From Patescibacteria group bacterium (GTDB lineage Bacteria > Patescibacteriota > Minisyncoccia > GCA-002772825): 64,000 nucleotides of DNA. Positions 1 through 33,109 of this stretch are shown here, one piece after another (the first letter of the stretch is position 1; every line of letters starts with the position of its first letter). Below the pieces are notes generated by a model. It made no database searches and was not told the DNA's origin. It saw only the letters and a list, made by a program, of their open reading frames with translations. The stretch is from positions 128,137 to 192,136 of the forward strand of contig JANLHB010000016.1 in the NCBI GenBank assembly GCA_024654625.1. The letters are read 5' to 3'. Made by a program: the position numbers and the translations under genes.

Positions 1-59
1 ACGCAGATAAATTAACCCACAAGATAGAAGTCGAAGCCGTTGGCACTGCTTTTGATAAT

Positions 60-3000
60 GTGGCAAACCGAACTGCCCGCGAGATTCTCTATGATCCCTC
101 TTCGCCTAAAATCAGGCGATCACATTCAATCGTCTACGACAGCATCCATAAACGATATCTGCTTTTTGGCGGATGGAATGGCACAAGTCCTCGCTACAAC
201 GATGTGTGGGAGTTGTCTGCCGATGACCGATTTGGTTCTTCTCCTCCCCAATGGAGAAAATTAAATCCTTCGGGAACTCCGCCATCTGCCCGCACAACTC
301 ATCTCGCTTTCTTTGATGCCACCGGCAACCGAATGATCATTCACGGTGGATATGACGGCGCGGATAAAAATGACACCTATGCGCTTGATGTTACGACCAG
401 ATACAGCGAAGCGTGGACGACGCTTTCTCCTACCGGCACTGCTCCTGCCGCGCGAAGTCAAGCGGCTGGTGCTTTCAAAGCGTCTACGAGAAAAGCGTAT
501 GTTCAGGGCGGTTTGGTTGGCGCGGGCGATTATCGCAACGACCTTTTTGAGCTTGACCTCTCCACGACAAATGGAGCGTGGACTCAACTGAAAGCCGAAG
601 ATGCGGCCGGCAATCCTCCCAGCCGAGCAGACCACTCGATAGTTTTTGATATTACAAATAATCGTCTGCTTATTTTCGGCGGATACGATGGCACGAATCG
701 ACTGAACGATCTCTGGAGATGGGATATCGCCGGCGCTTCGTTTGCCGAAGTATCTGACGGCACTCCTCCGGGAGTGCGGCAGATGCATGTGGCCGTCTAT
801 GACGAAAATAATCCAAGAATGATTGTCTGGGGAGGGAGAAACGGCACTGCATCCTCAAATTATCTTTCGGAGATTTGGGAGCTCAACACCACATCGGGAA
901 GCGAAACATGGACTGACAGAAGCCAAGCGGCGGGAGATAAAGTCCCCGGCTCGCGTTCTTCGGCCGCATGTTTTGATACGGTCAACAAGATAATGGTCAT
1001 ATTCGGCGGCGAGGATTCGGCATTGGCGCAACACAAGCATGTATATTTCATTGACCTCGCTACATCTGGTTCTGCCCCATTTTGGGGGGCGCTTCACAAC
1101 AACTGGCTATGGGGCCGCGATGCGATAGGTTACGCCTATAATCCCGACAGAAACGAAACTCTTATTTTCGGCGGATTCGGCCGTCTGGTTGAAGATACGC
1201 TTGCCGAAGGAGAACACACGAATGAATTTTGGATTTACGACCACGCCAATGGCGAATGGTATCAGCCGATTTTCAATACGATGTTCGGCATATCAGAACG
1301 AGAAGGGGCAACGATTATTTATGATACTAACCGAGATCGCTACATTATTTTCGGCGGTTTGGGCGGCAACAATACTCTAAACAATATTTACTTCAACGAT
1401 GTCTGGGAATTAAAAGCCAGCGCCGTTGGCGCGACTGGAGTTTATACTCTCACTAAACTCAATCCCTCGGGCACGAAACCCGCCGCACGATGGTTGCACG
1501 CCGCAGTATACGATGCGACTAATGACCGAATGATTGTTTTTGGCGGAGATGACGGCTCGAATTTCTTGAACGACGTGAAAGCACTCTCGTTCTCCGGGGG
1601 AGCTGACGGCGCTTGGTCTGCGATCACGCCCACCGGGACTGCGCCATCTGCCCGCAGACAGACGGCTTACGCCATAGACACCGGCGAGAATGTGATGCTG
1701 ATTTCTCATGGCGGCACTGGGGTGAACTCCTTTGCCGGCGACACTTTCAAACTGACGCTTACCGCAGGATCAGAAGCATGGGGAAGCGTTACGGGAACTG
1801 GCGCTCCATCTGCCCGCCGCGGCATGACCGCCATCTATCGTTCAACAGATGACGCTTTCTACTTTTTCGGCGGATACAACGGCACGACTAATTTTGATGA
1901 ACTCTGGAAGCTAACTTTTGGCGCAACTCCAGCGTGGTCTGCCGTTGCCGATACAAGCCCGCCAGCAGGAAGGCGGTCTCATTCAGGGACTTATTCTCCT
2001 ACGGGAGACAAAATGCTGATTTACGGCGGCCGCGACAGCACTGAAATATCATTCAATACCTTAAATCAAACTTGGGAATATGATATCGCGGGAAATGTTT
2101 GGACAAAGAAAGACCCCAAAATTTACATTCGGGGCGGCGATGATGTGACCGGCTTGGCTTCGTCCACCTCGTATCACTGGCAATCTTGGGTTACGGGAGT
2201 ATCCGGCGGCGATGCCGACAAAGTGTCGGCGTTCGGAAACTTGGAGAGCGTGGCGGATTTTCTCACAGGAACTGGTCAAGCTTTTACTCAAACTCTTAAC
2301 GAAATAGTTGCTGTGGCCGATCAAGTTCCGAAGCAGGCCCAGAAAGCCGCAAGCGAAGTGTTATTAATCGTTGATTCTTTGACGAGAAGCACATCGCGGA
2401 TATTTACGGAAGTCATCGCCATAGTTGATTCAATATCAAATCAGGCGCAAAAAATATTCTCGGAAATAGTTTCAATTGCCGATTCGCTCATAAAGCAAGG
2501 GCAAAAGAATCTGGCAGAAGTTATCACTATTACCGATACCGTACTCACTCAATCAACGCTCTTTAGGACTTACTCCGAAATAATCACAATTACCGACTCT
2601 CTGGCGAAACAAGTTGCCCGATCATTCAACGAAATGGTGATTCTTACCGATTCAGTGACCGCAAAAATCACCGCAAAGATTTTTGAAGAAGTGGTGATTA
2701 TTGTCGATAGCATTCAGCGAACCATTTCGAGAACTTTCAATGAAGCTCTAACGATTATTGATACAAAAATACTCCAGCCGATTAAAAACTTTATTGAGAC
2801 AGTTATTATCGCCGATGTTCTGTCGGTGGTGTTGACCATAAAAAAAGAACTCTCGGAAGCGGTTTTACTGGTTGATTCAGCGATAAAAGATATCGGAAAG
2901 TTTCTGGCGCCAGAAATCGTGTTTGTTGCCGACAACGCGGCACGGTTAAGCGGAAAAAATCTACAAGACACAATTATTGCCGCAGATTCTATCGCTAAAG

Positions 3001-5690
3001 AAAGCCAGCGGAGTATCTTGGAATCCGTATTGGTGGCGGATACTTCCATCCGGCAAGACATCAAAACATTCGGAGAAGTAGTAACGCTGGCTGACAACTT
3101 TTTGAGAACTTGGACAATCCAGAGGGTATTTGAGGAAATCGTTGCCATTGCCGATGTCTTATCCCGTCAAACTCAAAAAGCGTTCAGCGAAGTGGTGATA
3201 ATTGCGGATGCAATCATTGGAAAAACAATATCCAAAGTTTTGTCAGAAATAGTCACGATAGCGGACGCAATCGAGAAACAGATAAGTAGGATTTTTAATG
3301 AAGTTGTGGCAGTGGCCGACAGTATTGTTCGTTCTACCTTAAAACTTTTGAGCGAGGCGGTGATTATCGCCGATATTTTCTTGGCGGTGGCTGTCGTTAA
3401 AAAAGAACTTGTCGAGGCAATTTTGCTGGTAGATTCGGCTATAAAAAGTGTCACGAAATCGATGACAACGGAAATCGTGCTGGTTACAGACAGCGCGGCG
3501 AGATTAGTGGAAAAAAATCTGCAGGACGCGGTTATTGTTGCCGACTCTGTCTTAAAAGAAAGCAGGCGGATCATTCTCGAATCAGTGTTGCTTGTAGACA
3601 CATCCTTCAGACAAGGGATCAAAACGCTCGAGGAAGCGGTGACACTTGTCGACAGTTTTTTGAAAACTTGGACGGCGCAAAGAATCTTTGAGGAAATTGT
3701 CGCCATCAGCGATTCCGTATTCCGGCAAGCGCAAAAGACACTCATTGACGCAGTAATAGTTGCCGACTCGTTAGTGAAATCGATTCAGAGATCGTTGGCA
3801 GAAGCTGTAGCCATCGCAGATTCACTTTTGAGGCAGGCCCAGAAATTAGCGCAAGAAGCTGTGTTTATTGTTGACACCCTCGCAAATCAACTGACTGCAA
3901 GCAGAATTTTTGCAGAAGTTGTCGCAGTGGCCGATACGATTTTTAAGCAAATGAGCAGAAGTTTGGCAGAAGTTGTGGCCATAGTCGACTTTCTTCTGCG
4001 GGCCCCGCAAAAGGTTCTTGCCGATGCGGTGGCCATCGCCGACTCTATCCTAAAATCCGCCCAAAGAGCTTTTTTTGAAGCCGTGGCCGTGGCTGACACA
4101 CTGGCAAAACAAATGATTCGAAGGTTCTCTGAATCAGTGGTTATTGCGGATACTGCCCAAGCTATAAAAACTTTTGTCAGAGATTTGGATGAAATTATTG
4201 CTGTTGTTGATTCAGTAGCGAAACAAACCGGCAGAAGTTTGGCAGAAGTCATATTGATCGTTGATTCGGCGATACGCTCGGCAGGAAAATTCATAACCGA
4301 AACAATTATTGTGGCTGATTCAATTATTCGAGAGACGAGCCGAACGATAAACGAGGTTGTGGTTGTCTCGGATAATCTTGTAAGACAAACTGGAAGAATT
4401 TTGAGCGATGCGGTTGCCTTAGCCGACTCAGTCACTACCAAGATAACCGCCAAGATTTTTGCTGAAGCGGTAGCGATTACTGATGCCATAGAAAAACAGA
4501 CGGGGCGAATTTTGAGCGAGATCGTGGCAATCGCAGACAATCTGATCCGGCAAGCCGGCAAGGTTTTGAGCGATCCCATAGTCGTAATCGATACTTTCAC
4601 CCGCACGATCTCCATTCAGAGAATATTGCAGGAAGCAGTGATTATCGCTGACAGCGTAAACAATCAGGCCCAAAAGATATTCGGGGAAATTATATCGGTC
4701 ATTGATAGTTTAAGCCGGCAGATTTCTCGTCTATTTGCCGAAGCGATATCGATAGCCGATTCGGTTTCAAAGACAGCTCAAAGAATACTTCAAGAAACCA
4801 TCTCAATTGCCGACGCACTCACAAGAGCTGGCGGCAAAGCTCTAAACGAAATCGTCACCATCGCGGATTCTTTATCAAAACAAATCACCCGAACATTAAA
4901 CGAAGTTGTCGCCATCGCTGATTCTGTCTTGAAGCAAGGATCAAGGATTTTTACGGAAGCCATATTGCTTGCTGACAACTTTATTCGGCAGGCCGGCAAA
5001 GTATTTTCCGAAGCAGTACAAATAGCCGATGGCGTGATCGCCGTCAAACTGCAGGTGCTTCTTTCCGAAATAATTGTCATCGCTGACAGCGTTATCATGC
5101 CTTTTACGAAAATGCTTGCCGAGATGATAAGCATTGCGGACGCGATTGTCCGTCAAACAGCCAAGATTTTTGGCGAGGCGGTTTCAATCGCTGATTCGCT
5201 CGGCAAACAGATTTTGAAAATATATGCGGAGATGGTTGCTGTCGCGGATTCAGCGATGCGCCAACCAATGAAGCTTCTCAAAGAAATAGTGACGATAGCA
5301 GATTCGATGGCTCGAATCGTGTCCAGAGTGTTTGCACAAACCATAACGATTGCCGATTCGGCTTTGAAAAAAGCAGTTCGAGTTTTTGCGGAAGCAGTGA
5401 GTATCGCTGAATCACTCGCAAAGCTTCTTACACGATACGCGAATCTTAACGAAATCGTGCAGGTGGCAGATTCGATCATTCGGGCAATTGGCAAGGCGGT
5501 CACCGAGACCGTCCGTATCGTGGCAGAGCTTTTGAATAAACCAACCTTCCCGCCTGTGCTCAAGGTTGCGATTCAATTTCTGACCGCAAAGATCGGTGTT
5601 TTGCTTTCGAGTTCAAAACAGAATACCGAACTAAAGAGCGCGAAAACAGGGGTCGATCTTAAGGGCGCGAAACAAGATATCAATTTGTAA
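60..5690 (+). CDS. Giant repeat protein, 5'-truncated at the window edge. N-terminal Kelch/galactose-oxidase-like beta-propeller repeats, then about 57 tandem copies of a 19-aa unit (x-F-x-E-V-V-x-I-A-D-S-x-x-R/K-Q-x-x-K). Putative phage fibre or adhesin.
   Basis: The reading frame is open from nt 3 with no in-frame stop upstream of the first in-window ATG at 60. Repeated ...FGG...W... Kelch blades run from about aa 1-700. From about nt 2250 to 5500 the sequence repeats with a 57-bp period, seen as recurring EVVAIADS / EIVTIADS / EAVAIADS peptides. Confidence 0.8.
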   Translation: MANRTAREILYDPSSPKIRRSHSIVYDSIHKRYLLFGGWNGTSPRYNDVWELSADDRFGSSPPQWRKLNPSGTPPSARTTHLAFFDATGNRMIIHGGYDGADKNDTYALDVTTRYSEAWTTLSPTGTAPAARSQAAGAFKASTRKAYVQGGLVGAGDYRNDLFELDLSTTNGAWTQLKAEDAAGNPPSRADHSIVFDITNNRLLIFGGYDGTNRLNDLWRWDIAGASFAEVSDGTPPGVRQMHVAVYDENNPRMIVWGGRNGTASSNYLSEIWELNTTSGSETWTDRSQAAGDKVPGSRSSAACFDTVNKIMVIFGGEDSALAQHKHVYFIDLATSGSAPFWGALHNNWLWGRDAIGYAYNPDRNETLIFGGFGRLVEDTLAEGEHTNEFWIYDHANGEWYQPIFNTMFGISEREGATIIYDTNRDRYIIFGGLGGNNTLNNIYFNDVWELKASAVGATGVYTLTKLNPSGTKPAARWLHAAVYDATNDRMIVFGGDDGSNFLNDVKALSFSGGADGAWSAITPTGTAPSARRQTAYAIDTGENVMLISHGGTGVNSFAGDTFKLTLTAGSEAWGSVTGTGAPSARRGMTAIYRSTDDAFYFFGGYNGTTNFDELWKLTFGATPAWSAVADTSPPAGRRSHSGTYSPTGDKMLIYGGRDSTEISFNTLNQTWEYDIAGNVWTKKDPKIYIRGGDDVTGLASSTSYHWQSWVTGVSGGDADKVSAFGNLESVADFLTGTGQAFTQTLNEIVAVADQVPKQAQKAASEVLLIVDSLTRSTSRIFTEVIAIVDSISNQAQKIFSEIVSIADSLIKQGQKNLAEVITITDTVLTQSTLFRTYSEIITITDSLAKQVARSFNEMVILTDSVTAKITAKIFEEVVIIVDSIQRTISRTFNEALTIIDTKILQPIKNFIETVIIADVLSVVLTIKKELSEAVLLVDSAIKDIGKFLAPEIVFVADNAARLSGKNLQDTIIAADSIAKESQRSILESVLVADTSIRQDIKTFGEVVTLADNFLRTWTIQRVFEEIVAIADVLSRQTQKAFSEVVIIADAIIGKTISKVLSEIVTIADAIEKQISRIFNEVVAVADSIVRSTLKLLSEAVIIADIFLAVAVVKKELVEAILLVDSAIKSVTKSMTTEIVLVTDSAARLVEKNLQDAVIVADSVLKESRRIILESVLLVDTSFRQGIKTLEEAVTLVDSFLKTWTAQRIFEEIVAISDSVFRQAQKTLIDAVIVADSLVKSIQRSLAEAVAIADSLLRQAQKLAQEAVFIVDTLANQLTASRIFAEVVAVADTIFKQMSRSLAEVVAIVDFLLRAPQKVLADAVAIADSILKSAQRAFFEAVAVADTLAKQMIRRFSESVVIADTAQAIKTFVRDLDEIIAVVDSVAKQTGRSLAEVILIVDSAIRSAGKFITETIIVADSIIRETSRTINEVVVVSDNLVRQTGRILSDAVALADSVTTKITAKIFAEAVAITDAIEKQTGRILSEIVAIADNLIRQAGKVLSDPIVVIDTFTRTISIQRILQEAVIIADSVNNQAQKIFGEIISVIDSLSRQISRLFAEAISIADSVSKTAQRILQETISIADALTRAGGKALNEIVTIADSLSKQITRTLNEVVAIADSVLKQGSRIFTEAILLADNFIRQAGKVFSEAVQIADGVIAVKLQVLLSEIIVIADSVIMPFTKMLAEMISIADAIVRQTAKIFGEAVSIADSLGKQILKIYAEMVAVADSAMRQPMKLLKEIVTIADSMARIVSRVFAQTITIADSALKKAVRVFAEAVSIAESLAKLLTRYANLNEIVQVADSIIRAIGKAVTETVRIVAELLNKPTFPPVLKVAIQFLTAKIGVLLSSSKQNTELKSAKTGVDLKGAKQDINL

Positions 5691-5693
5691 TTT

Positions 5694-6011
5694 ATGGCCA
5701 GCATTAAAATAGTACAAAACGATACGAAACCATACCTTGAGTTTGAAATAACCCAAGACGGCGCACCTGTCGATCTTACCGGCGCGACGGTGAAATTTTA
5801 TATGAAGGATTCAACCACCGGGTCCGTGAAGATCAATGGAAGCGCATGCACGATTACCGACGCCGCCAAAGGAAAATGCCGCTATGTCTGGGCGGCGGGT
5901 GACACCAACACGGTCGGGACATACCTTGGGGAAGTAGAGGTCACATTTCCCGATACGAAAATCCAGACGGGGTATAAGCAGGTGACGATCATTATTCGAG
6001 ACGACATATAA
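5694..6011 (+). CDS. Phage structural Ig-like protein (BppU N-terminal-like domain)
   Basis: The 105-aa N-terminus IVQNDTKPYLEFEITQDGAPVDLTGATVKFYMK resembles the BppU_N / phage Ig-like fold. It is tightly packed (3-nt gap) in a + strand operon. Confidence 0.5.
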   Translation: MASIKIVQNDTKPYLEFEITQDGAPVDLTGATVKFYMKDSTTGSVKINGSACTITDAAKGKCRYVWAAGDTNTVGTYLGEVEVTFPDTKIQTGYKQVTIIIRDDI

Positions 6012-6015
6012 ATTT

Positions 6016-6648
6016 ATGAACCGAGGAGAAATTAAAACCGCAATAAAAAATCAGGTTGACGATCAGAGTGTCACCGACGCCCTGCTTAATGAGTGGATTC
6101 AAGCCGCAGATGATCGCGTTCAAATTTGGCGTCCGCCGGCCGATCAGAGCCAGAGCTTTGACTACTGGGACTATTTGAAAGACCAAAAAAACTACACGAC
6201 GGTGGCGGATCAGAATAAATATTCTATCCCAGATGAGTACCGAGCGTTTATCGAGCTGACAGTCGGAGACGACACCGAGCCCTACCGGCTGGTTGATTTC
6301 TTGGATCGGGAAGAATTTAACGACCACATCGCTTGGATTCTGGGCAAGTTTTTCTATATGAAGAAAACGCCCTCGGTGGACGGTGACACGATGGTGTTCA
6401 CTTTTGCTCGCATGTCTGACGCGTTTGTCTCGGACAGTGATGAACCAGAAATTGAGCGGCCGTATCATCAGGCCCATGTGGCATTCGGAAAATCCCGCTA
6501 TTACAACCAGCAGGGCGACACGGAATTGGAGAACCAGAATCTAAACGAGTTTGAGAGGATCATGACGAATAAATGGAGGGATCAAGAGCAGGGGCGAATG
6601 GCCTCAGCAAGAGAGTCGGCATCCATCCCCAAAAACTTTTTAGTGTAA
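6016..6648 (+). CDS. Hypothetical phage-module protein
   Basis: Complete 210-aa ORF with a 4-nt gap to the upstream gene, lying in a run of genes on the same strand. No recognisable motif. Confidence 0.55.
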   Translation: MNRGEIKTAIKNQVDDQSVTDALLNEWIQAADDRVQIWRPPADQSQSFDYWDYLKDQKNYTTVADQNKYSIPDEYRAFIELTVGDDTEPYRLVDFLDREEFNDHIAWILGKFFYMKKTPSVDGDTMVFTFARMSDAFVSDSDEPEIERPYHQAHVAFGKSRYYNQQGDTELENQNLNEFERIMTNKWRDQEQGRMASARESASIPKNFLV

Positions 6649-8579: not shown

Positions 8580-8786
8580 ATGCCAAACGATCCAAACGAA
8601 AACAGAAATCCGCTTGATCCGCAATTGGGACTCATTCTCACTCTGTTGAGAGATATCCCGATTTTGAATACGGTCCCGAGCGACCCGCCAAAGTTTCCGA
8701 TCGGATTCGCGCTCTATGACGACGGTGTAAATCGGAGGTTTTACATTTTCTTCAATGGCAACTGGCGATATGTAGCTCTCACTTAA
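8580..8786 (+). CDS. Small hypothetical protein
   Basis: 68-aa ORF with 2-4 nt gaps to its neighbours on the same strand. Confidence 0.4.
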   Translation: MPNDPNENRNPLDPQLGLILTLLRDIPILNTVPSDPPKFPIGFALYDDGVNRRFYIFFNGNWRYVALT

Positions 8787-8790
8787 ACAT

Positions 8791-10161
8791 ATGGCAAACA
8801 CACTATTCGAATATTACAAAACAAAAGGCCAAAAACTCCCCGGCATTTCCGATAGATCGAAAACTTTCGAGGAACTTGGCTTGGGAGCGGCTTCGGCATA
8901 TAAGGGCGACTACCAGCAGAATGTTGACCTGTTGGAGAGGTTGAAAGCCGGGTCCCAGCCCAAAATAACCCCAATTCAGCCTCAAACCGCCTCTCTGCCA
9001 GCCCAGAAACCCCCCGTGGCGAGCCTTGCGACCCGTGTTGAAGCGGGGCCGACCCAGCCACCCATTTCACCACCTGTGCCGAGCTTGCCACCCAAAACGA
9101 CCATTTCTGGACAAGAGGTGCCAACCAGCACTGGACTATTCCAGCAGTATCAGGTGGACATAAACAAACGCATGCAGGATTTAGAAGAGCGAGAAAGAAA
9201 AGTTTTGGAATCACAAAAAGCTTTGCCGAGCAAAGCCGATCTTCTGAGCGGCGCGAGAACCGAGCAGGGTCTGCCAGAAGATACCAAAAGAGCCCAAAGC
9301 TTGGATGAACGGCTGGCCTCATTAGAGGGTTCAATCTTTGAATCCGAGAGGGATATTCGGGATCGCATCAAAAAGAGCGGCGGCATTGTGACGGAAAGTC
9401 AGGTGCAAAGATTAGCGGCTTCTGAAACCAGACCATTGCTTGAAGAATACAACCGGCTCTCTACGGAGAGACAACGGCTTGGCCAAGGCATCTCTTCAAA
9501 AGAAGGTCTTGCCCGCGAATTTGCCGGCGCGAAGTTTGAGGACTTGTCCCGCGCGCTTGGGATAGCGGAAACCGAACTTGAATTTGGCAGGAAGCGATAC
9601 GAAATTTATGCGGATATTGCCGGCGATCTCTTGAACGCATCTCAAAAAGACATCGCGCAGATTGTCGAAATGGCTCAATCCAAAGACAAGGCCGAAAGAA
9701 AAGCGGCCGAAGATGCCATTGATTTCGCATTCAAGATGGCGGACTTAGCAGTGAAAACTCCGGCTGGCACGACATTCGATATCGGTGGGAAAAAAGTGGC
9801 CGGCGTAAAACCGCCGACATCATCTTCCGTCAGTACGCTTGCGCCGACGCAGTTCAACATTCGCGCAGGCCTTGCAGGACTTACTAAAGATCAGGCAAAC
9901 GATGTCGCCGCTTCGGAAACTCCGCCGGCGTGGTTTAAGGCCCAAGAAGAAAACAAAGCGCAATCATCGCTGACATTCGCGGAACTTCAGAAAAGATGGA
10001 GCGCCATGAGAAGCAAGGTAGCGCAAGCGGCAGAGACAAAAGAATCTGATGATCCGTTCGCCAGAATCGTTGAGGCGGCGATTAGCGGCGGAGAAACAGG
10101 AACCGAAGGGGGCGATCTCTTCGAGGCCATCATTAAAAAAGCGTTGGCCGAAAGCCCATAA
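8791..10161 (+). CDS. Coiled-coil protein with a proline-rich linker (scaffold- or assembly-like)
   Basis: 456 aa. A central Pro/Gln-rich segment (PQTASLPAQKPPVASLA...PPISPPVPSLPP) is followed by long E/K/R-rich helices. Confidence 0.55.
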   Translation: MANTLFEYYKTKGQKLPGISDRSKTFEELGLGAASAYKGDYQQNVDLLERLKAGSQPKITPIQPQTASLPAQKPPVASLATRVEAGPTQPPISPPVPSLPPKTTISGQEVPTSTGLFQQYQVDINKRMQDLEERERKVLESQKALPSKADLLSGARTEQGLPEDTKRAQSLDERLASLEGSIFESERDIRDRIKKSGGIVTESQVQRLAASETRPLLEEYNRLSTERQRLGQGISSKEGLAREFAGAKFEDLSRALGIAETELEFGRKRYEIYADIAGDLLNASQKDIAQIVEMAQSKDKAERKAAEDAIDFAFKMADLAVKTPAGTTFDIGGKKVAGVKPPTSSSVSTLAPTQFNIRAGLAGLTKDQANDVAASETPPAWFKAQEENKAQSSLTFAELQKRWSAMRSKVAQAAETKESDDPFARIVEAAISGGETGTEGGDLFEAIIKKALAESP

Positions 10162-19468: not shown

Positions 19469-20974
19469 TTATTTTACACCTTTTTCTGATTTTCTTCTTT
19501 CTACAACGAAATCATAGGTTTTTTTGAACTCATAGGCGTTAAGGATTTTTTCTGCGTCTGGCTTCGCACCGATTTGTCGTTCGATCATCCACTCCGATTG
19601 CGGGTTCAGTTTAAGATAGTCGTTCACCTTTGCGCTTTCTACATGTGTAATTTGAAGGTAGTATTTTGAGCTGTCGTTTTGATCTTGATTTTCAATTTTT
19701 ACGAAATCTCTCTGTTTGAGAAAATTATACCGGCCATCAAGTTCATAGAGGGCAAAAAAACTTTCATTGCCATGTTTCAACATATTGAAATCCTGATCGC
19801 TTAGTGTTACCCCTTTTTTATCGTGAATTTTACCTATCGCAGGAGACGGAAATGATGCAGGAAATTTCTTCACTCGCTTGTACCCCTCAAGCGATAATTG
19901 GGAGTTTTCTCCTTTTTCTAAATACTCATAAGAACCCGTGAAAGGACCAAGGCGAGAATCAAAATCGACAAATATGTGCGGAAATTTGTGCCACTCATCA
20001 CCCTTGTCGTCTATGACGAGCATCTCGTCATAGCGGATCAAGCCATTTCTGATAAATGTTACTTGGTTGCGATGCGGCAAGTGATCCCAGAAGTCCTCGA
20101 TTTTTTCTCGTATTTTTTGTTGCTTCTCTTTCTCCTCTTGAGAATCGCTTTCCCGATAAATTAGATTGATTGCATCCGTAAAATCGTACTCTTTTTTTTC
20201 AGGGTCAACATATGCAAAAAATCTATGCATATTCACAATTAATCCCAGCGGATAGTATGCAACTGTTTTGTATTCGCGCCAGCGCGGGCGTTCTTTAAAA
20301 TCTTTATACTCATTTTGATATGGATATTTTGCATCCTTTGAATCTCGCAAAAGAACCGATCTGTGAAGTTTGCCTTCATCGCCAAAAATCCTATAGAGCT
20401 TATTTTTATTGCTGACGATTTGCCGTATTTCAGTAGCTCGGGATCGTCTTCTACTAACTAAGGAAATGCCAAAAAAAGTGAAGAGGATGCGGTCGTTTTT
20501 GGGGAGATGAAGCATGTCTTCCAGCTCTGCTTTACCCCAGAGATAGAATTCCATAACCCCTTTCTTTCGGAGCTCTTCGCGGAAAATATCATATGATTCT
20601 TTTGAAAAGTTTGCCGAAGCGGCAAGTATATATCCGTATGGCGGATTTTTAGGATCGGCATCGGAAATGATTTCTTTTACTTGCTTGGGACCGATTTCTT
20701 TTTCTCTCTTACCTTGAATCATCCATAAATTACCTGCCATAGGATGCACCTCTTCCGAGTTCTCGTCCTCGCTTTCTATCGGTGAAGCTTTATAGGTTTT
20801 TTCGTAAGCGCGAATATCAAATCCGCTATCATTACCGCTCCTTCCAGTTGCCTCAATCGTCTGCCAATCCTTATAGTCGTAAATCAGTTCCCGAATCAAA
20901 TCTTCAAAACGATGAGGGTCTAAATCCTCAAAGTGAATAGGTCCGTATGTTCGTGTGACTTTGGATTTAGCCAT
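19469..20974 (-). CDS. Mrr-catalytic-domain (PD-(D/E)xK restriction-endonuclease-like) N-terminus fused to an uncharacterised ~370-aa C-terminal region. Candidate defence nuclease.
   Basis: The N-terminus HRFEDLIRELIYDYKDWQTIEATGRSGNDSGFDIRAY...WMIQGKREK...YILAASANFSKESYDIF matches the Mrr_cat pattern FE.lv..ll...G......gDgGiD...vQcK. Confidence 0.6.
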   Translation of the reverse strand: MAKSKVTRTYGPIHFEDLDPHRFEDLIRELIYDYKDWQTIEATGRSGNDSGFDIRAYEKTYKASPIESEDENSEEVHPMAGNLWMIQGKREKEIGPKQVKEIISDADPKNPPYGYILAASANFSKESYDIFREELRKKGVMEFYLWGKAELEDMLHLPKNDRILFTFFGISLVSRRRSRATEIRQIVSNKNKLYRIFGDEGKLHRSVLLRDSKDAKYPYQNEYKDFKERPRWREYKTVAYYPLGLIVNMHRFFAYVDPEKKEYDFTDAINLIYRESDSQEEKEKQQKIREKIEDFWDHLPHRNQVTFIRNGLIRYDEMLVIDDKGDEWHKFPHIFVDFDSRLGPFTGSYEYLEKGENSQLSLEGYKRVKKFPASFPSPAIGKIHDKKGVTLSDQDFNMLKHGNESFFALYELDGRYNFLKQRDFVKIENQDQNDSSKYYLQITHVESAKVNDYLKLNPQSEWMIERQIGAKPDAEKILNAYEFKKTYDFVVERRKSEKGVK

Positions 20975-21032
20975 AATAAAAAATATCTAACACCTCTATA
21001 AGAAAAATCTAGGGGCTATTTCGCCCCATAGA

Positions 21033-22754
21033 TTATTCCAATTTCTGCATGAAATTATTAATCTCATCAGCGATTGCTTTTCTGCGCCATCCCAAAAATT
21101 CTCTGAAGTTTGCTATCTCCCAAAGTTTTCTGTCCAAAGTGATCAGCTGAAGCTTTATTGCTTCTTCGCCTTTTTTAGCAATGATTTCCTTTTCAAGATA
21201 AACAGAGGGTTCTTTGTTGAGAATTTGTCTGTTCGTCTTGCCGCCAATGAAAGCAAAATTTGCGATCTCGTTAATTTCTTTCTTGTCATAACCGAATTTT
21301 GGTTCACGCAAAAGAGATTTTGGAAAGATGTGATGATACTGGATAGTATGCGCCCGGCCCGTGTGCTTCTCGGAAAGTTTCAAACCAGAAAACCAATCCT
21401 TGGCGCCATTATGCTTTAATACGAAATAAAGCATTGAGAAAAATGGACTTCGGATGCCTCTATTAACAAGATCGTCCAGATCAACAACGAATTTTTTGAC
21501 ATGCAGATGTAGCTGATTAATAAGATCATCGAGATTCTTATTTTTGAATAAGAGAGACAGGTCGGCTTCCAAAATAGATTCAGACGATCCCATGCTGTAG
21601 TGTCCGCGCATGTGAGCGAGATAAAACCAGCGCAGAAGTTTTTTCTGTTCTTCCGGGGTTAGCTTCTCGTCGCGCAGTGTCGCATAGACGGCAATCGGGA
21701 TCAGTAAGAAAGGAGATGAAAGATAACTAAGATTGTCTATGCCGGCATTGCTTCTTAAGAAGTTGATAGCAAAGCGCAAGCCGTTTGTGGCAAGCTTCCA
21801 AGAGTCGCCCAGTTTCTCTTTGCTGATTTTACCAACTGTCTTGAATCTGCTTTGATGTGTGGCGAACACCACGAGCATGCGAACGGGCAGACCAGTTTCT
21901 ACAATGTAATCCTCGTCATCCTTAAACTCGGCCGCAAAATCTTCAATAAGACCCATGAACCCCTTCCACCGAGATGTGATCTGGGCTAAGGCCAGATCAG
22001 AACCACGCAATTTGATACCAAGAGAATTGACACGCACGAAAATCTCCGTGACTTCTTCATACGACATGCTTTTTTCAAGCACCTGCATGACATACTGATA
22101 GTCGGAGATCGTTTTGACCTTTTGCAATCTGGCCGAATACTTTTTATAGCGCGGATCTTGTAAGGATGTGATGCCGACTTTTTCGAGTATTTCGCTGAAA
22201 TCTTTTTTGAAAATATCCGATACTGGGACCCAGAGTGGATCGTTTTGCAATGCACGGCTTGCCACTACAAAAGTTCTCTTTCTCATCTCTTCTTGAATAT
22301 CGCGCTCTGCGGTTTCTTCGTCCTCAACATCTTCCAAATCAGCGGTGAAGTCGCCATTATTTTCGTCTACTTCTGTGATTTCTACCGGCGGACCCTCGGG
22401 GTGCTCTAAATTAAAAAGAATGTCGATTGGCCGCTTGCGGTTTCTGACATGAACTGGCTCGCCACCCAAGACCGCAGATAAGGAGGTGATTCTTTGCTGA
22501 CCATCGAGTAGTAATATTTTTTGGGAAATCGTAGGAGTTCTTGTGGCTTGCACGGCAAGTTCTCGTGTCTCAATTTCTTCGTCAGTTTCCCAAACCAAAA
22601 TAGTCCCCGAGGGATACCCGCGATAGAGGGAGTCGAGAAGATCGCGCACTCGGGTTGCTGGCCAGACATACCGGCGTTGCATCTCGGGGAGAGTGAGCTC
22701 GCCGCGCTGAACCTTATCGACTAATTCACGAACTGATATATCTGTTTTTGGCAT
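21033..22754 (-). CDS. GmrSD-family type IV restriction enzyme (DUF262 ParB-like NTPase domain plus DUF1524 His-Me finger nuclease)
   Basis: N-terminal LPEMQRRYVWPATRVRDLLDSLYRGYPSGTILVW and the LLLDGQQRITSL (DGQQR) signature of DUF262. C-terminal TIQYHHIFPKSLL matches the DUF1524 HxxP motif. Confidence 0.8.
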   Translation of the reverse strand: MPKTDISVRELVDKVQRGELTLPEMQRRYVWPATRVRDLLDSLYRGYPSGTILVWETDEEIETRELAVQATRTPTISQKILLLDGQQRITSLSAVLGGEPVHVRNRKRPIDILFNLEHPEGPPVEITEVDENNGDFTADLEDVEDEETAERDIQEEMRKRTFVVASRALQNDPLWVPVSDIFKKDFSEILEKVGITSLQDPRYKKYSARLQKVKTISDYQYVMQVLEKSMSYEEVTEIFVRVNSLGIKLRGSDLALAQITSRWKGFMGLIEDFAAEFKDDEDYIVETGLPVRMLVVFATHQSRFKTVGKISKEKLGDSWKLATNGLRFAINFLRSNAGIDNLSYLSSPFLLIPIAVYATLRDEKLTPEEQKKLLRWFYLAHMRGHYSMGSSESILEADLSLLFKNKNLDDLINQLHLHVKKFVVDLDDLVNRGIRSPFFSMLYFVLKHNGAKDWFSGLKLSEKHTGRAHTIQYHHIFPKSLLREPKFGYDKKEINEIANFAFIGGKTNRQILNKEPSVYLEKEIIAKKGEEAIKLQLITLDRKLWEIANFREFLGWRRKAIADEINNFMQKLE

Positions 22755-22788
22755 AGGTTAACAAGTTGATAAATTGATTGTATCAAGG

Positions 22789-22890
22789 ATGACAAAATAT
22801 GACAATCTCTTTTTAGTTATCCACTTAGCATCGCTTAGCAGAATTTAAGAAATAGAGTAAAATGACAAAATATGACAGGTAGAGTATAAT
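22789..22890 (+). promoter_or_regulatory. Divergent promoter/operator region: two direct copies of ATGACAAAATATGACA (22789-22805 and 22862-22877) and a TATAAT -10 box (22885-22890) upstream of the HTH-mod-res genes
   Basis: Exact 16-nt direct repeat spaced about 73 nt apart. A consensus -10 hexamer lies 8 nt after the second copy and 15 nt before the HTH gene ATG. Confidence 0.4.
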
Positions 22891-22904
22891 GAACCTATAA
22901 GCAT

Positions 22905-23087
22905 ATGCCTGTGGAGAAATTTCTAACAATTAAAGAAGTTGCCAAAAAACTGCGTGTCAGCGAACGCTCGGTGATGCGCTATATTAAGGCGAAAAAACTG
23001 GTCGCCTCAAAAATGGGTCAATGGAGAATAAAAGACGGCGACCTTGATCGTTTTTTTAATGCGCACACCAACTCTAAAAAGAAGTAA
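22905..23087 (+). CDS. Excisionase-family (HTH_17, MerR-like) DNA-binding protein. Putative controller of the downstream type III restriction-modification genes.
   Basis: LTIKEVAKKLRVSERSVMRYIKAKKLVASKMGQWRIKDGDLDRFF matches the excisionase/HTH_17 helix-turn-helix. The mod gene starts 3 nt downstream. Confidence 0.7.
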   Translation: MPVEKFLTIKEVAKKLRVSERSVMRYIKAKKLVASKMGQWRIKDGDLDRFFNAHTNSKKK

Positions 23088-23089
23088 AT

Positions 23090-25210
23090 ATGAAAAATTT
23101 AAATAAATACGATATAGAATTTCTGATCGAGTGTTTAAAAAGCGGCAAGGAAATCCCAACAGAATATAAGTACGCGCTTTTTCCAACCAAGCAAAAAGAA
23201 TACGAGCTTGTTTATGCCGGGAAAATGCGAAAAGAGGATGTGCTGGCAGACACCGAGGAAGCCAAGCCAGTGCCGCTCCAAATCGAAAAAGTTTTTAATG
23301 GCAAGAAATATCCACTTTACTCCAAAGATTGGCACAACCTTTTGGTTTTTGGCGATAATCTTCAAATCCTTAAAACCTTTAATGAGAATAAGGACCTGCT
23401 CGTCAAAAATAAAATTAAGGGGAAAGTAAAACTGATTTATATTGATCCGCCATTTGCAACGGAAGATGATTTCAGAGGAAATGGTGGAGCGAAAGCATAT
23501 TCTGACAAAGCAAAAGGTGCTGAATTTGTTGAATTTTTGCGCCGCCGCTTAATAGTAGCAAAGGAAGTGTTGGCAGATGACGGTACAATTTGGGTTCATT
23601 TGGATCATCGCAAAGCAGAATACATAAAAGTTTTAATGGATGAAATTTTTCCAAGTTGTTATCTTAATACAATTTATTGGCGTAGTCAGGTGGCAAGGGG
23701 CGCAAAAGTTAATGCTGAATTTTTACCAAAAAGTTGCCAACAGATTTTAGTTTACAAAAAGCGCACTGATGCAAAGCCCTTGTGGGAAGCACCCAAAAGG
23801 GAAATTATTTTGACGGAAGAAGAAATTAAACAAGAAGGCAGTTATAAACAAGACGAAAAAGGAAATTACTTTAGAACATCGGACCCGGGATCATATTCAT
23901 TTGAAAGCCTGCTTGACTTTTACAAGCAAGGTCGCATTTATGTGAGCTATGGCGGTAAAGTGATTTTTGATAACAAAAAAAAGGAAGTAAAAACGACAAA
24001 AGGGAAAATCGGCATAAAGTATTATGCTGAAGGTTTGGGCGGCGGAAAGTATAAAATTATAAGGTCAATCGATAATATTTGGACGGATATACCAGGACTT
24101 GGAACGGTGCCATCAGAAGATACTGGATATCCAACACAAAAAGTTGAAACTCTTTTAGAGAGGATCGTAAGTTCAACAACAAACACGGGCGATTTGGTAA
24201 TGGATTTCTTTTCCGGGAGTGGAACAACGGCAATAGTCGCCGAAAAATTAGGTAGGCGTTGGGTTGCCTGTGATATCGGGAAGTTATCAATCTACACAAT
24301 TCAAAAGCGATTATTAGAGATAGATCGGGGCCGAGATTTGATCGACTTAAAGAAAAAATATGGTAAGCCGGCAAAATCTTTCGCCATCGTTACTTCGGGG
24401 CTTTATGATCTTGGAAAGATTTTTGCTCTACAAAAAGATGAATATACTCGCTTCGTGAAAGATTTATTTGAAATTGAGGAAACGAAGGTTACAAAAATAG
24501 GTGGTGTCGAAATCGATGGGAAGAAGCGAGAATTTTACGCGAAAATCTTTCCATATTGGGAACTGAAAAATGCCAGCGTTGATGAAAAGTATTTGCAGGA
24601 ATTACATAAGAGCATTGGCGGGAAAATTGATGAAAGATTTTACATAATCGCTCCCGCGAACAATGTAAATTTTATCAGCGATTATCACCAGATTGGCAAT
24701 GTTCGGTATTATTTTCTCAAAGTACCGTACCAGATCATTAAAGAATTGCACAAGGTTCAGTTTAAGAAGTTTCGACAGCCACAAAGCAAAAGCCAAATCA
24801 ATGATTTGGACGAGGCAATTGGTTTTCACTTTATTCGTCAGCCAGAAGTAAAATCAGAGGTTAAAAAGTTGAAAGATAAAATCGTTTTGAAAATCAAAAG
24901 ATTTGAGTCCGCATATTCACAGGACGAAACCGGCGAAAAACTCAAAAACTTTGAAAGCTTGGCAATGTTGCTTTTGGATTTAAATTATGACGGCGAAAAG
25001 TTTATGATGACAAACTACTTTTTCGCACATGATTTGCTTAATCATAAGTCAAGCGATCAGGAAGAAAGCGAGGAAGAAATTAAAATGGAATTAAAGAAAC
25101 AAAAAGAAATTATCAAAGAATTTCCGAGAAAAGATTGCGGTAAAGAAATTATGGCAATTTATGTTGATATTTACGGTAATGAATTTCGGGAAGTTTTTAA
25201 GGTTAAATAA
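23090..25210 (+). CDS. mod: Type III restriction-modification Mod subunit (beta-class N6-adenine/N4-cytosine DNA methyltransferase)
   Basis: Motif IV, LIYIDPPF (DPPF), lies N-terminal to motif I, DFFSGSGTTAIVAEKLGRRWVACD (FxGxG). This order is the beta-class arrangement, and the res gene follows immediately. Confidence 0.8.
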   Translation: MKNLNKYDIEFLIECLKSGKEIPTEYKYALFPTKQKEYELVYAGKMRKEDVLADTEEAKPVPLQIEKVFNGKKYPLYSKDWHNLLVFGDNLQILKTFNENKDLLVKNKIKGKVKLIYIDPPFATEDDFRGNGGAKAYSDKAKGAEFVEFLRRRLIVAKEVLADDGTIWVHLDHRKAEYIKVLMDEIFPSCYLNTIYWRSQVARGAKVNAEFLPKSCQQILVYKKRTDAKPLWEAPKREIILTEEEIKQEGSYKQDEKGNYFRTSDPGSYSFESLLDFYKQGRIYVSYGGKVIFDNKKKEVKTTKGKIGIKYYAEGLGGGKYKIIRSIDNIWTDIPGLGTVPSEDTGYPTQKVETLLERIVSSTTNTGDLVMDFFSGSGTTAIVAEKLGRRWVACDIGKLSIYTIQKRLLEIDRGRDLIDLKKKYGKPAKSFAIVTSGLYDLGKIFALQKDEYTRFVKDLFEIEETKVTKIGGVEIDGKKREFYAKIFPYWELKNASVDEKYLQELHKSIGGKIDERFYIIAPANNVNFISDYHQIGNVRYYFLKVPYQIIKELHKVQFKKFRQPQSKSQINDLDEAIGFHFIRQPEVKSEVKKLKDKIVLKIKRFESAYSQDETGEKLKNFESLAMLLLDLNYDGEKFMMTNYFFAHDLLNHKSSDQEESEEEIKMELKKQKEIIKEFPRKDCGKEIMAIYVDIYGNEFREVFKVK

Positions 25211-25215
25211 ACGCT

Positions 25216-27762: not shown

Positions 27763-27785
27763 CGATCTCAAGAAAATCTGCTCTT

Positions 27786-27815
27786 AAAAAATAATGCCCG
27801 GGAGGGCATTATTTC
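27786..27815. terminator. Bidirectional intrinsic terminator (AATAATGCCC-GGGA-GGGCATTATT) between res (+) and a convergent small gene (-)
   Basis: Perfect 10-bp inverted repeat flanked by an A-run on the 5' side and a T-containing tract on the 3' side. Confidence 0.55.
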
Positions 27816-28042
27816 GTCTGGTGGGGAGTGTCGGTCCGATTGAGCCATTCCTGAAATTCTGCCTTTCTTTCTGGCGTTCCAGAGCGACCCAAAGAATTAA
27901 AAAGAGATTGAGCTTCGTTCTTGCTCGCACCCTTGAGTATTCCGGCGATCCATTTGAGATTTTTCTCGCCTTCAAGGTAAGAACGAAGGGAGTTTTTGAC
28001 CCAACGACTTCCCGCCTCTTGTAATGAGATGTTTCTCGACAT
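27809..28042 (-). CDS. Small hypothetical protein (77 aa), divergent from the XRE gene
   Basis: ORF with ordinary composition sharing a 160-nt divergent intergenic region with the XRE HTH gene. The alternative overlapping ORF 27784-28080 looks spurious. Confidence 0.35.
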   Translation of the reverse strand: MSRNISLQEAGSRWVKNSLRSYLEGEKNLKWIAGILKGASKNEAQSLFNSLGRSGTPERKAEFQEWLNRTDTPHQTK

Positions 28043-28133
28043 AGTAAAGCTACCTTAGCATTTTTTTGTTTTTTTATCAACTTGATAGACGGAATTTGAC
28101 AATGTGGGCAACCTATTGACTTTTATTTAGTGA

Positions 28134-28186
28134 GGTAGTACCATTGGGGTAGTATTACCGAATTGAGGTCATTTTGTAGTACAATC
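28134..28186 (+). promoter_or_regulatory. Candidate operator/promoter: three GTAGTA-containing repeats (GGTAGTA at 28134 and 28148, TGTAGTACAAT at 28176) with a TACAAT -10-like box 18 nt upstream of the XRE start
   Basis: Direct repeats read off the sequence in the 160-nt divergent intergenic region. Confidence 0.3.
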
Positions 28187-28203
28187 GTAAACAACACATT
28201 TTT

Positions 28204-28413
28204 ATGCCAAAACAACAAAATCCATTGGGTCGAAACCTCAAGTCGCTGAGAGAGAAGCGTGGTCTTTCGCAGGATCGATTAGCGAAGTTGGCGGATGTCT
28301 CAAACAATACGATCATTGGGATCGAGCAGGATGAGAATCCGAATCCGACACTTGAGACCCTCAAGAAAATAGCAAAAGCTCTTGAGGTAAGTATCGATGA
28401 TTTGACCCGATAA
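28204..28413 (+). CDS. XRE-family helix-turn-helix transcriptional regulator
   Basis: LGRNLKSLREKRGLSQDRLAKLADVSNNTIIGIEQDENPNPTLETLKKIAKALEVSIDDL is a classic HTH_3 sequence. The next gene starts 4 nt downstream. Confidence 0.8.
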   Translation: MPKQQNPLGRNLKSLREKRGLSQDRLAKLADVSNNTIIGIEQDENPNPTLETLKKIAKALEVSIDDLTR

Positions 28414-28417
28414 CCAT

Positions 28418-28948
28418 ATGCAATTTTTTAATATTTTCACCACGATCAGCCCTCAAGCGATAGAAGTCGCGCTCCTTTCGGTCGTGGCTATTTTATTAAT
28501 AGGGGTGATCCTGTCGATCAGCAAACTCACTACTGGATTTTTGAAAGCACTAACTCACCTGCGTGATAGCTTCCGAGAGGAAATACGATTCTCCATCCAA
28601 CCAAAAGTTATTGAGATGTCTTTAAGCGTGGAATCATTAGTTGAACTCGCCGTAGAGGTTTGGAGAATAGAGCAACGATTGGCAAAAGTTACTTCAGGAC
28701 TTACCGATATCCAGAAGAAAGGGCTTGAGAGTTCGGTCCAAAAGCTGAAGCGATACTTGGAAAAATACGATTTAGAAATCCGAGATTATACCAATCAAAA
28801 ATTCAACGAAGGCCTGAATTTGGATATTTTGTCAGTAGAAAAGGACCCGACAATTACCGAGCCGATAGTCAAAGAGACGGTTGAGCCAACGATCATGTGC
28901 AAAGGTCAGGTCGTGAAAAAAGCCAAAATCATACTCTTGAGCAATTAA
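28418..28948 (+). CDS. Membrane-anchored GrpE-like nucleotide-exchange-factor homologue
   Basis: N-terminal transmembrane segment (ALLSVVAILLIGVILSI) and a long helix. KGLESSVQKLKRYLEKYDLEIRDYTNQKFNEGLNLDI resembles the GrpE core motif G[VL]E..x.K.L...LEK.GVE.ID..G..FDPNLHEA. The terminal CKGQVVKKAKIILL resembles the GrpE C-terminus (GY.l.drvLRpAkV.V). Confidence 0.55.
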   Translation: MQFFNIFTTISPQAIEVALLSVVAILLIGVILSISKLTTGFLKALTHLRDSFREEIRFSIQPKVIEMSLSVESLVELAVEVWRIEQRLAKVTSGLTDIQKKGLESSVQKLKRYLEKYDLEIRDYTNQKFNEGLNLDILSVEKDPTITEPIVKETVEPTIMCKGQVVKKAKIILLSN

Positions 28949-28952
28949 ACCT

Positions 28953-31469: not shown

Positions 31470-31470
31470 T

Positions 31471-33105: not shown

Positions 33106-33109
33106 ATTT

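Follow-up and report, generated by a model that had tools for sequence, protein, structure and literature searches.

Introduction

The triple β-spirals of the adenovirus fibre and reovirus σ1 consist of pseudo-repeats of 15-20 residues, each with a fixed strand, a Pro/Gly turn, and a variable loop, and form obligate trimers that are unpredictable as monomers; left-handed β-helices and RTX β-rolls are made of 18-residue coils. In phages of the SU10/T7 type, long trimeric fibres dock on the head-to-tail adaptor (PMC9509320). Hoc and the tentaclins provide a precedent for an N-terminal binding head combined with a C-terminal anchor (PMC10743442). Here, we analyse a 64,000-nucleotide stretch of a Patescibacteria group bacterium ("the window"; assembly GCA_024654625.1, contig JANLHB010000016.1, positions 128,137 to 192,136), which opens within a 5'-truncated gene for a giant repeat protein. 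We consider this protein to be, more likely than not, a modular virion fibre, i.e., a host-adhesion protein, of an SU10-like short-tailed prophage in the chromosome of a bacterium of the Candidate Phyla Radiation (CPR).

To our knowledge, there is next to no information on how CPR hosts are located and bound by their phages. The object described here would be a widespread form of the modular phage adhesion fibre, with an uncharacterised shaft repeat, in this case residing in a CPR prophage. Its head-shaft-tail design would have the less common polarity, with the binding head at the N-terminus, and its modules move between podovirus and siphovirus backgrounds; a modular design of this kind helps in annotating host-recognition genes in metagenomic phages.

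A putative fibre gene in a phage structural module

Three features at the left end of the window place the gene:

Positions 3 to 5690, + strand: open reading frame (ORF) for the putative giant fibre protein, cut at its 5' end, with 1895 codons in the window and a stop codon at 5688-5690.
Positions 5694 to 6011, + strand: 105-residue BppU_N/immunoglobulin (Ig)-like protein (Pfam BppU_N, E-value 3.2e-11), candidate docking adaptor and positional counterpart of SU10 gp10.
Positions 6016 to 6648, + strand: head-to-tail adaptor of the SU10_adaptor family (Pfam PF24175, E-value 2.5e-15, profile positions 1-187 of 194).

Frame 3 of the forward strand translates without an internal stop from the window edge to the stop codon. 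The gene is co-directional with the next structural gene and separated from it by 4 nt (the two overlap in the orthologous phage contig L001), and it lies within the late structural operon, directly upstream of the genes for BppU_N and the SU10 adaptor in the window, L001, and L012, and upstream of gp36/gp6-type connector genes in four siphovirus loci. In L001, an SU10-type capsid gene (SU10_MCP) is found four small genes upstream of the giant gene. The preliminary description of this DNA had pointed to phage fibres or adhesins as the context in which to look, and this was a sensible guess.

Eleven related phage loci, compared for synteny, represent three virion types, and in them the homologous gene belongs to the head/neck part of the structural module. 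In the SU10-like podoviruses L001 and L012 (with L004 similar), the fibre gene comes after the capsid genes and directly before BppU_N and the adaptor. In four siphoviruses with Mu-like heads (L003, L006, L007, and L011), it directly precedes the gene for a 300-residue protein in which a C-terminal gp36/gp6-type connector domain follows an unannotated N-terminal extension of 140-185 residues, the latter being a candidate docking domain for the fibre. Capsid genes also precede the fibre gene in L003, L006, and L011, where they lie within the fetched flank; no recognisable capsid gene is present in the fetched flanks of L007, L008, and L010. In L002, the gene is located between the portal and capsid genes, ahead of the major capsid gene, with a BppU_N gene next. 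The fibre gene precedes tail genes in L008 and L010, and in none of the 11 loci does it come after the tape measure gene.

The locus L013 was reached through the conserved BppU_N protein. There, the same slot holds a gene for a 513-residue pectate-lyase-type β-helix (tailspike-like) protein, followed by that of a 447-residue repeat protein. The BppU_N gene comes after this pair in L013, as it comes after the fibre gene in L001, L002, and L012.

L013, positions 8661 to 10004: 447-residue protein with 24 consecutive 14-residue units (T-Y-x-L-D-I-R-N-L-x-x-K-x-x).

As judged by sequence, L013 thus carries a second, different shaft repeat joined to the same C-terminal tail as that of the window protein. 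A derivation of the 14-residue unit from the 18-residue unit of the window protein (see below) by loss of a 4-residue stutter, as a helical argument would have it, was dropped; hydrophobicity in the 14-residue unit is split between periods of 3.5 and 2.3.

Two alternatives bear on whether the product is an external virion component at all. The first is that it is a surface adhesin of the CPR bacterium, or a cargo gene of lysogenic conversion. CPR genomes commonly encode large LamG and DUF2341 proteins, and part of the window is cellular, with a second giant surface protein encoded at 52037-59035. Against this stand the close, co-directional spacing to the next structural gene, the occupation of the same slot in 11 phage contigs of three virion types, and the appearance of the termini: by eye, with no predictor run, the C-tail has no membrane anchor or cell-wall sorting motif, and the full-length relative P0001 has no evident hydrophobic leader. 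We hold this alternative to be very improbable. In the second, the product would be a tape-measure-like or internal (ejection or scaffold) protein, its repeats serving as a molecular ruler or extensible conduit inside the particle. The protein is indeed very long and repetitive, and weak matches to PHROG tape measure families exist (phrog_305, 1.7e-4; phrog_167, 7.5e-3); these are far weaker than the match to phrog_12240 described below, the host phage is a short-tailed SU10-like podovirus, siphovirus loci with the family carry their own TMP_2/TMP_3 genes further downstream, and N-termini with lectin-like, Kelch, and LamG domains are what one would look for in a protein that binds on the outside. 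An internal role is thus the least credible of the readings and borders on the negligible.

Architecture of the protein

Within the ORF, four regions can be distinguished:

Positions 3 to 2117, + strand: Kelch β-propeller region of about 12 blades, proposed distal ligand-binding head (Pfam Kelch families and GG motifs).
Positions 2118 to 2294, + strand: conserved linker from propellers to shaft (YHWQSW…GGD..K.S.FGN.ES.ADF…YTQTL), a motif that precedes the repeats in P0001-P0005 and P0020.
Positions 2295 to 5498, + strand: shaft of 58 tandem units, residues 765-1832 (position-matrix segmentation, autocorrelation, phrog_12240, and profile search).
Positions 5499 to 5687, + strand: conserved C-terminal tail (…PPVLKVAIQFLTAKIGVLLSSSKQNTELKSAKTGVDLKGAKQDINL), proposed virion anchor and/or assembly (trimerisation) element.

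The overall arrangement given in the preliminary description, with a Kelch propeller ahead of a short and almost regular tandem repeat, is confirmed, as is its observation that the ORF is open at the window edge and lacks its N-terminus. The closest relative, P0001, is a full-length protein of 1949 residues that is 89% identical, without gaps, to window residues 1-1072. Since its alignment starts at its own residue 217, which pairs with window residue 1, about 216 N-terminal residues lie by homology outside the window; the GTG start listed at position 60 is therefore an artefact, being the first possible start inside a truncated gene. Whether an in-frame stop might lie just upstream of the window is answered indirectly, as the P0001 orthologue reads through 216 more codons, to an ATG. 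In an AlphaFold2 (AF2) model, the N-terminal domain of P0001 is a moderate-confidence β-sandwich (jelly-roll), with a predicted local distance difference test score (pLDDT) of 65-89 over residues 33-153. Foldseek with this model returned generic jelly-rolls (GOLD, CUB, viral capsid) at template modelling scores of no more than 0.5, which is uninformative as to attachment.

From residue 1 to about residue 700, the protein matches Pfam Kelch families at E-values of 1e-105 to 1e-15, far over thresholds (PF24681 at 1.2e-105 and 352 bits against a cut-off of 50; PF13415, 152 against 22; PF01344, 56 against 20). The estimate of about 14 blades has to be lowered, with twelve GG...W blade motifs counted between residues 54 and 674. 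These motifs, spaced 51-63 residues apart, suggest that the region probably forms two six-bladed propellers. Comparison with the L001 orthologue over window positions 3-3218 gave 212 synonymous and 37 non-synonymous codon changes in the Kelch head, and 80 synonymous and 84 non-synonymous changes in the shaft; in its C-terminal half, the shaft falls to 45-60% identity with this orthologue.

The C-terminal tail of the window protein recurs in P0001-3, P0010, and the otherwise unrelated 14-residue-repeat protein of L013 (…KKQDINL). When the last 55 and the first 250 residues of family members were clustered separately, one C-tail class was found paired with at least 8 unrelated N-terminal domains, and one N-terminal class (jelly-roll plus Kelch) with 3 different tails. 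The N-terminal domains of the family are lectin-like or propellers (Kelch, LamG_3, DUF2341, and DUF7483), and globular domains interrupt the shaft in some members. Head domains, shaft length, and C-tails are shuffled independently.

Distribution of the repeat family

The repeat is common in uncultured phages. A word-indexed search recovered 35 proteins, and a full profile search with the repeat brought the number of representative proteins to 7,871 at E <= 1e-3, of which 769 score E <= 1e-30; the longest has 4,442 residues (protein clusters being counted at 50% identity). Neither Pfam nor NCBIfam contains a model that the repeat matches, and its sole family assignment is phrog_12240 (E-value 5.4e-31, over 7 stretches), in which the same repeat has been clustered before; that family has no annotation, structure, or described function. 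In the PDB, neither a single sequence nor a profile gave anything beyond designed helical bundles without significance. Close relatives of the window protein were absent from scans of IMG/VR and GTDB, and tblastn against 50,697 GenBank phage records (INPHARED) gave one weak match (21% identity, E = 5e-6). A large repeat family with neither a Pfam or NCBIfam model, nor a solved relative, nor a usable AlphaFold model gives structural biologists of phage fibres something definite to aim at.

The shaft repeat

The shaft had been described as about 57 tandem repeats of 19 residues. The strong tandem array stands, with a count of 58 units, and the period is corrected to 18 residues. Position-matrix segmentation gave unit spacings of 18 residues in 42 cases, 20 in nine, and 19 in six, and 18 is the modal spacing in homologues as well. 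Self-identity of the protein is 0.264 at lag 18 versus 0.117 at lag 19, with shuffled sequences at 0.086 +/- 0.008 (z = 22). In the DNA, the proposed 57-bp periodicity gives way to a peak at 54 bp (self-identity of 0.412 at lag 54 versus 0.316 at lag 57). Tandem Repeats Finder returned 0 rows for the DNA, because the repeat copies are too diverged at that level.

The unit follows the consensus [LF]-x-E-x-[VI]-x-[LIV]-x-D-[ST]-h-x-[KR]-Q-x-x-[KR]-x. Where a unit has 19 or 20 residues, the insertion is without exception within positions 10-19, leaving the first nine intact, and a weaker rhythm of 93 residues (5 units), marked by 20-residue units, is present in the first half of the shaft. The higher-order super-repeat of about 190 residues was correct insofar as a ten-unit duplication is visible, and incorrect as a pervasive period. 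Identity at lag 186 is high (up to 67%) only for residues ~800-1060 versus ~986-1246, and a global alignment shows P0001 to lack about 10 units at the duplicated region.

Positions 3336 to 3728, + strand: main extra block of the duplication of about 10 units (186 residues), residues 1112-1242 (lag-186 identity and gap in P0001).

The local nature of this identity and the coinciding gap in P0001 indicate that the 186-residue "super-repeat" is one recent segmental duplication of about 10 units. Close relatives have 58, 49, 43, and 40 units; shaft length therefore changes quickly.

The repeat also gives rise to long reading frames on the opposite strand:

Positions 2714 to 5563, − strand: five long antisense ORFs (144, 190, 242, 114, and 136 residues; ORF list), all in one frame.

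That frame contains 14 stops in 1068 codons, versus 40-74 in the other two antisense frames, and substitutions relative to the orthologue fall mostly on third positions of the sense strand. The antisense ORFs, already regarded as spurious in the preliminary description, are by these patterns non-coding by-products of the repeat, the frame being left nearly stop-free by sense codon usage. Such ORFs are liable to be mis-called as genes. In L009 (MW202615.1; 5739-7637), the only GenBank phage record with a weak match to the repeat, the annotation places a hypothetical protein on the opposite strand of that stretch, consistent with the same artefact.

Fold of the shaft

A 19-residue period had been taken to fit neither heptad coiled coils nor common β-solenoids. 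This did not hold up, as lengths of 18-20 residues are typical of several fibrous or solenoid folds, including 18/5 coiled coils (7+7+4; PMC4786415) and those described in the Introduction. AlphaFold modelling of a repeat block had also been suggested; run as a single chain on 16 units, with an alignment of 42 rows drawn from paralogues and orthologues, AF2 returned broken helices and no confident model (pLDDT 33), as would be expected if the fold exists only in an oligomer.

One candidate is an α-helical shaft, in which an 18-residue unit would make up approximately five helical turns (18/5, 7+7+4), either as a near-straight segmented coiled coil or as a phi29-like multi-stranded helix-turn-helix supercoil, with the 19- and 20-residue units as discontinuities. 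For hydrophobicity, the 3.6-residue harmonic (k=5) carries 0.47 of the power of the unit here and 0.44-0.63 in 13 homologues (permutation p about 0.01), and the period-2 harmonic (k=9) carries 0.02 here and about 0-4% overall. On a helical wheel, nine contiguous positions are hydrophobic and nine polar; opposite charges read from the consensus stand at i/i+4 (D9-K13, K17-E3'); the AF2 model is all-helix; the only echoes in PDB or PHROG are helical designs and tape measures; and 18/5 is an accepted coiled-coil periodicity (PMC4786415). Several properties of the unit are at odds with a helix. The confidence of that model is very low, conservation alternates with period 2 (the k=9 harmonic holds 60% of the power, permutation p = 0.003; mean of 2.55 bits at odd versus 1.55 bits at even positions), and insertions are restricted to positions 10-19. 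Of 514 units, 26% have Gly at position 16 and 9% have Pro at position 15, versus <=4% at other positions. The family composition, rich in Thr, Val, Ile, and Ser and poor in Glu and Lys, is not that of a helix-compatible sequence (Thr 12%, Val 12%, Ile 11%, Ser 9.5%, Glu 6%, Lys 5%; T+V+I 35%, S+T 22%). In P0012, Thr makes up as much as 26%, and the distant members P0034 and P0033 have a Pro or Gly in each unit. On balance, we consider a helical shaft rather unlikely.

Covariation did little to separate the candidates. In mean-field direct coupling analysis (1,012 two-unit windows) and mutual information (991 subsampled unit pairs), couplings between the same positions of neighbouring units dominate, an effect of lineage or homogenisation; once far units served as a control, only weak i/i+2 signals close to the noise level were left. 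A left-handed β-helix was tried and rejected: of the hexads L-S-E-A-V-T, I-A-D-S-L-I, and K-Q-A-G-K-I, into which the conserved positions can be divided, two fit the register 1/7/13 of the hexapeptide signature [LIV]-[GAED]-x2-[STAV]-x (L...V and I...L), and the third has Lys/Arg at both inward positions, for which this fold requires aliphatic residues. The Pfam Hexapep profile had no match in the window protein.

We would give about an even chance to a shaft that is an obligate oligomer of β-rich (β-spiral or β-helix-like) character, which we place somewhat ahead of a helix-turn or coiled-coil shaft, and it is improbable that the shaft is something other than a β-rich oligomer or a helical array. 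With a rise per unit of about 0.5 nm for a solenoid coil, about 1.3 nm for a β-spiral repeat, or about 2.7 nm for a continuous helix, the shaft would measure about 28, 75, or 160 nm, respectively. Taking the argument further, and along the lines of the novel fibrous fold considered in the preliminary description, the 18-residue unit may define an undescribed fibrous fold of obligate oligomers that is neither coiled coil, triple β-spiral, nor triple β-helix, and that serves as a length-adjustable shaft in thousands of uncultured phages, including those of CPR bacteria and of archaea, with its C-terminal end fixed to the capsid or to the junction of head and tail; such a shaft might then match long head or neck filaments whose genes are unidentified. 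We offer this broader proposal as a long shot.

Proposed function, polarity, and attachment site

In the fibre model, the jelly-roll domain (outside the window) and the two six-bladed Kelch propellers would form a distal ligand-binding head. The shaft would follow with its 58 units, each combining a rigid 9-residue core (L-x-E-x-V-x-I-x-D) with a variable half of 9-11 residues containing a turn tolerant of Gly and Pro. The conserved, basic tail of approximately 60 residues would anchor the fibre and/or nucleate its assembly at the head-tail junction, with the 105-residue Ig-like BppU_N protein and the adaptor as likely docking partners. Such a fibre would widen the capture radius of the virion and mediate a first, reversible attachment to a ligand on the host surface. 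Shaft length would be tuned by gain and loss of units, with heads and tails exchanged as modules between phages. The modularity is read most simply as a binding head at the N-terminus, joined by a length-variable shaft to an element at the C-terminus that anchors or nucleates the fibre. The sequences themselves show the anatomy of the protein, its periodicity and duplication, the phage structural-module context, the shuffling of modules, and the size of the family. We infer that the protein is present in the virion, that its N-terminus is distal, and that it attaches to the neck or adaptor and not to the capsid, and we likewise infer its oligomeric state and how the shaft folds.

By analogy with the SU10 and T7 fibres (PMC9509320), we favour attachment at the head-tail junction, because no neighbour is as constant as the adaptor or connector gene (with its extra domain or partner protein) and because the slot can also hold a tailspike-like protein. 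Alternatively, the product may be a capsid (head) fibre or decoration protein, in which the C-tail or the 105-residue Ig-like protein would bind the capsid and the fibre would project from the head, as in phi29 gp8.5, T4 Hoc, and the filaments of phiCbK and 7-7-1. The gene does lie in the head part of the module, between the major capsid protein and connector genes (and upstream of the former in L002). The Ig-like gene occupies the position of SU10 gp10, for which a resemblance to the minor capsid protein of epsilon15 and to the base of the phi29 head fibre was predicted (PMC9509320), and capsid fibres of 88-114 nm with unidentified genes exist (PMC12796354). That same adjacency to the adaptor or connector gene speaks for the neck, however; the podovirus loci show no other receptor-binding candidate downstream of the adaptor, a slot that can hold a tailspike-like β-helix protein fits a tail or neck appendage, and tblastn gave no match in records of the 7-7-1 or phiCbK type. 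A capsid fibre is the less favoured reading and unlikely, but a serious alternative.

Several points weigh against the fibre model as drawn above. The upstream genes of the window locus lie outside the window, and apart from the one weak INPHARED match, the searches place no homologue in a cultured phage. The attachment site could be the capsid and not the neck. The argument for polarity is indirect, in that the conserved C-terminus could do no more than nucleate folding, as the foldon does in T4 fibritin, and the N-terminus could be the anchoring end. Purifying selection between close relatives is much stronger on the head than on the shaft, which is the opposite of the usual fast-evolving receptor-binding tip. 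Finally, the evidence on the fold is contradictory, with a hydrophobicity period of 3.6 set against a conservation period of 2, 35% β-branched residues, and 22% Ser plus Thr.

Prophage and chromosomal context

The remaining features of the window are as follows:

Positions 10167 to 15893, + strand: 1908-residue polyvalent protein with LPD38 and a putative metallopeptidase domain (phrog_9854 at 4e-125).
Positions 36318 to 37337: integrase.
Positions 39003 to 40514: PilM.
Positions 41176 to 42678: GatB.
Positions 52037 to 59035, + strand: second giant ORF, 2332 residues, with CHB_HEX_C, fn3, purple-acid-phosphatase-N, SH3, and PG_binding domains and no PHROG match.
Positions 59898 to 61235: SLT transglycosylase.

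The genes after the fibre encode the BppU_N protein, the SU10-type adaptor, two unannotated proteins, the 1908-residue LPD38 polyvalent protein, and a peptidase/peptidoglycan-binding lysin. The BppU_N protein, which also has weak Ig/Rib matches, is far better conserved than the fibre whose gene precedes its own, with relatives of 70-95% identity in 60+ metagenomic clusters (69-114 residues long among the matches listed). These relatives occur on contigs of up to 300 kb, suggesting many integrated prophages of this type. The polyvalent protein is probably an ejected or internal virion protein; its relatives in L004 and L012 contain methyltransferase and other modules.

Between the lysis genes and the integrase (19469-35501), the window carries a defence/accessory block comprising an Mrr-like nuclease, a GmrSD-type nuclease, a DNA methyltransferase, a helicase, an 838-residue Hsp70-like protein, and an AAA ATPase. 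In L001, a diversity-generating retroelement (reverse transcriptase and bAvd) is located downstream of the lysis genes, at 23420-24834.

SU10-like structural genes on the left, the integrase, and Patescibacteria-like cellular genes on the right together indicate that the window spans a prophage-chromosome junction, by gene content, with an SU10-like prophage in the left ~36 kb and the chromosome of a CPR bacterium from 36318 to 64000. The nearest GTDB relatives of GatB (48-57% identity) are mostly from Patescibacteria, and GC content is 44-52% in the left part of the window versus about 40% in the right. The product of the 2332-residue ORF looks like a cellular surface or cell-wall protein and not that of a phage gene.

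Comparison with known systems

With respect to its fold, the shaft invites comparison with two classes of fibre. It resembles the non-heptad coiled-coil stalks (18/5, 19/5, and β-layers) of trimeric autotransporter adhesins and T4 fibritin (PMC4786415) in that 18 residues equal five turns and in the impression of a segmented adhesin stalk with discontinuities. It differs from them in its high content of Thr, Ser, Val, and Ile and its low content of Glu, Lys, and Leu, with a Gly/Pro hot spot in each unit and conservation of period 2. The triple β-spiral, also found in viral attachment fibres, is a possible relative: the period of the shaft is 18-20 residues, Gly/Pro is concentrated at positions 15-16, and indels are confined to the second half of the unit. 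However, only about a third (~35%) of shaft units have a Gly/Pro turn, conservation alternates with period 2 but hydrophobicity does not, and the conserved Glu, Asp, and two Lys/Arg of each unit are without counterpart in the triple β-spiral.

With respect to the virion, the window phage is of the SU10 type by its major capsid protein and adaptor families, and in both phages the fibre genes neighbour the adaptor gene. The SU10 fibre genes (gp12-gp13; PMC9509320) follow the adaptor gene and encode an N-terminal anchor, whereas the window gene precedes it, has its conserved end at the C-terminus, and is separated from it by the Ig-like BppU_N gene; the SU10 fibres have no sequence similarity to the window protein. 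The gene for phi29 gp8.5 likewise lies between capsid and tail/connector genes and serves accessory adhesion, and gp8.5 has a shaft of a short repeating motif that exists only as a trimer. At 280 residues, with an N-terminal capsid-binding base, a C-terminal distal knob, and no sequence match to the window protein, gp8.5 is otherwise dissimilar. The spacers of T4 Hoc and the tentaclins (PMC10743442) are 1-4 Ig domains in monomers of 300-650 residues, in contrast to the 1,070 residues of 18-residue repeats that make up the spacer here. In its proposed polarity, from a binding domain at the N-terminus through a spacer to a conserved virion anchor at the C-terminus, the window protein would match these proteins, which similarly mediate adhesion to the environment or host surface.

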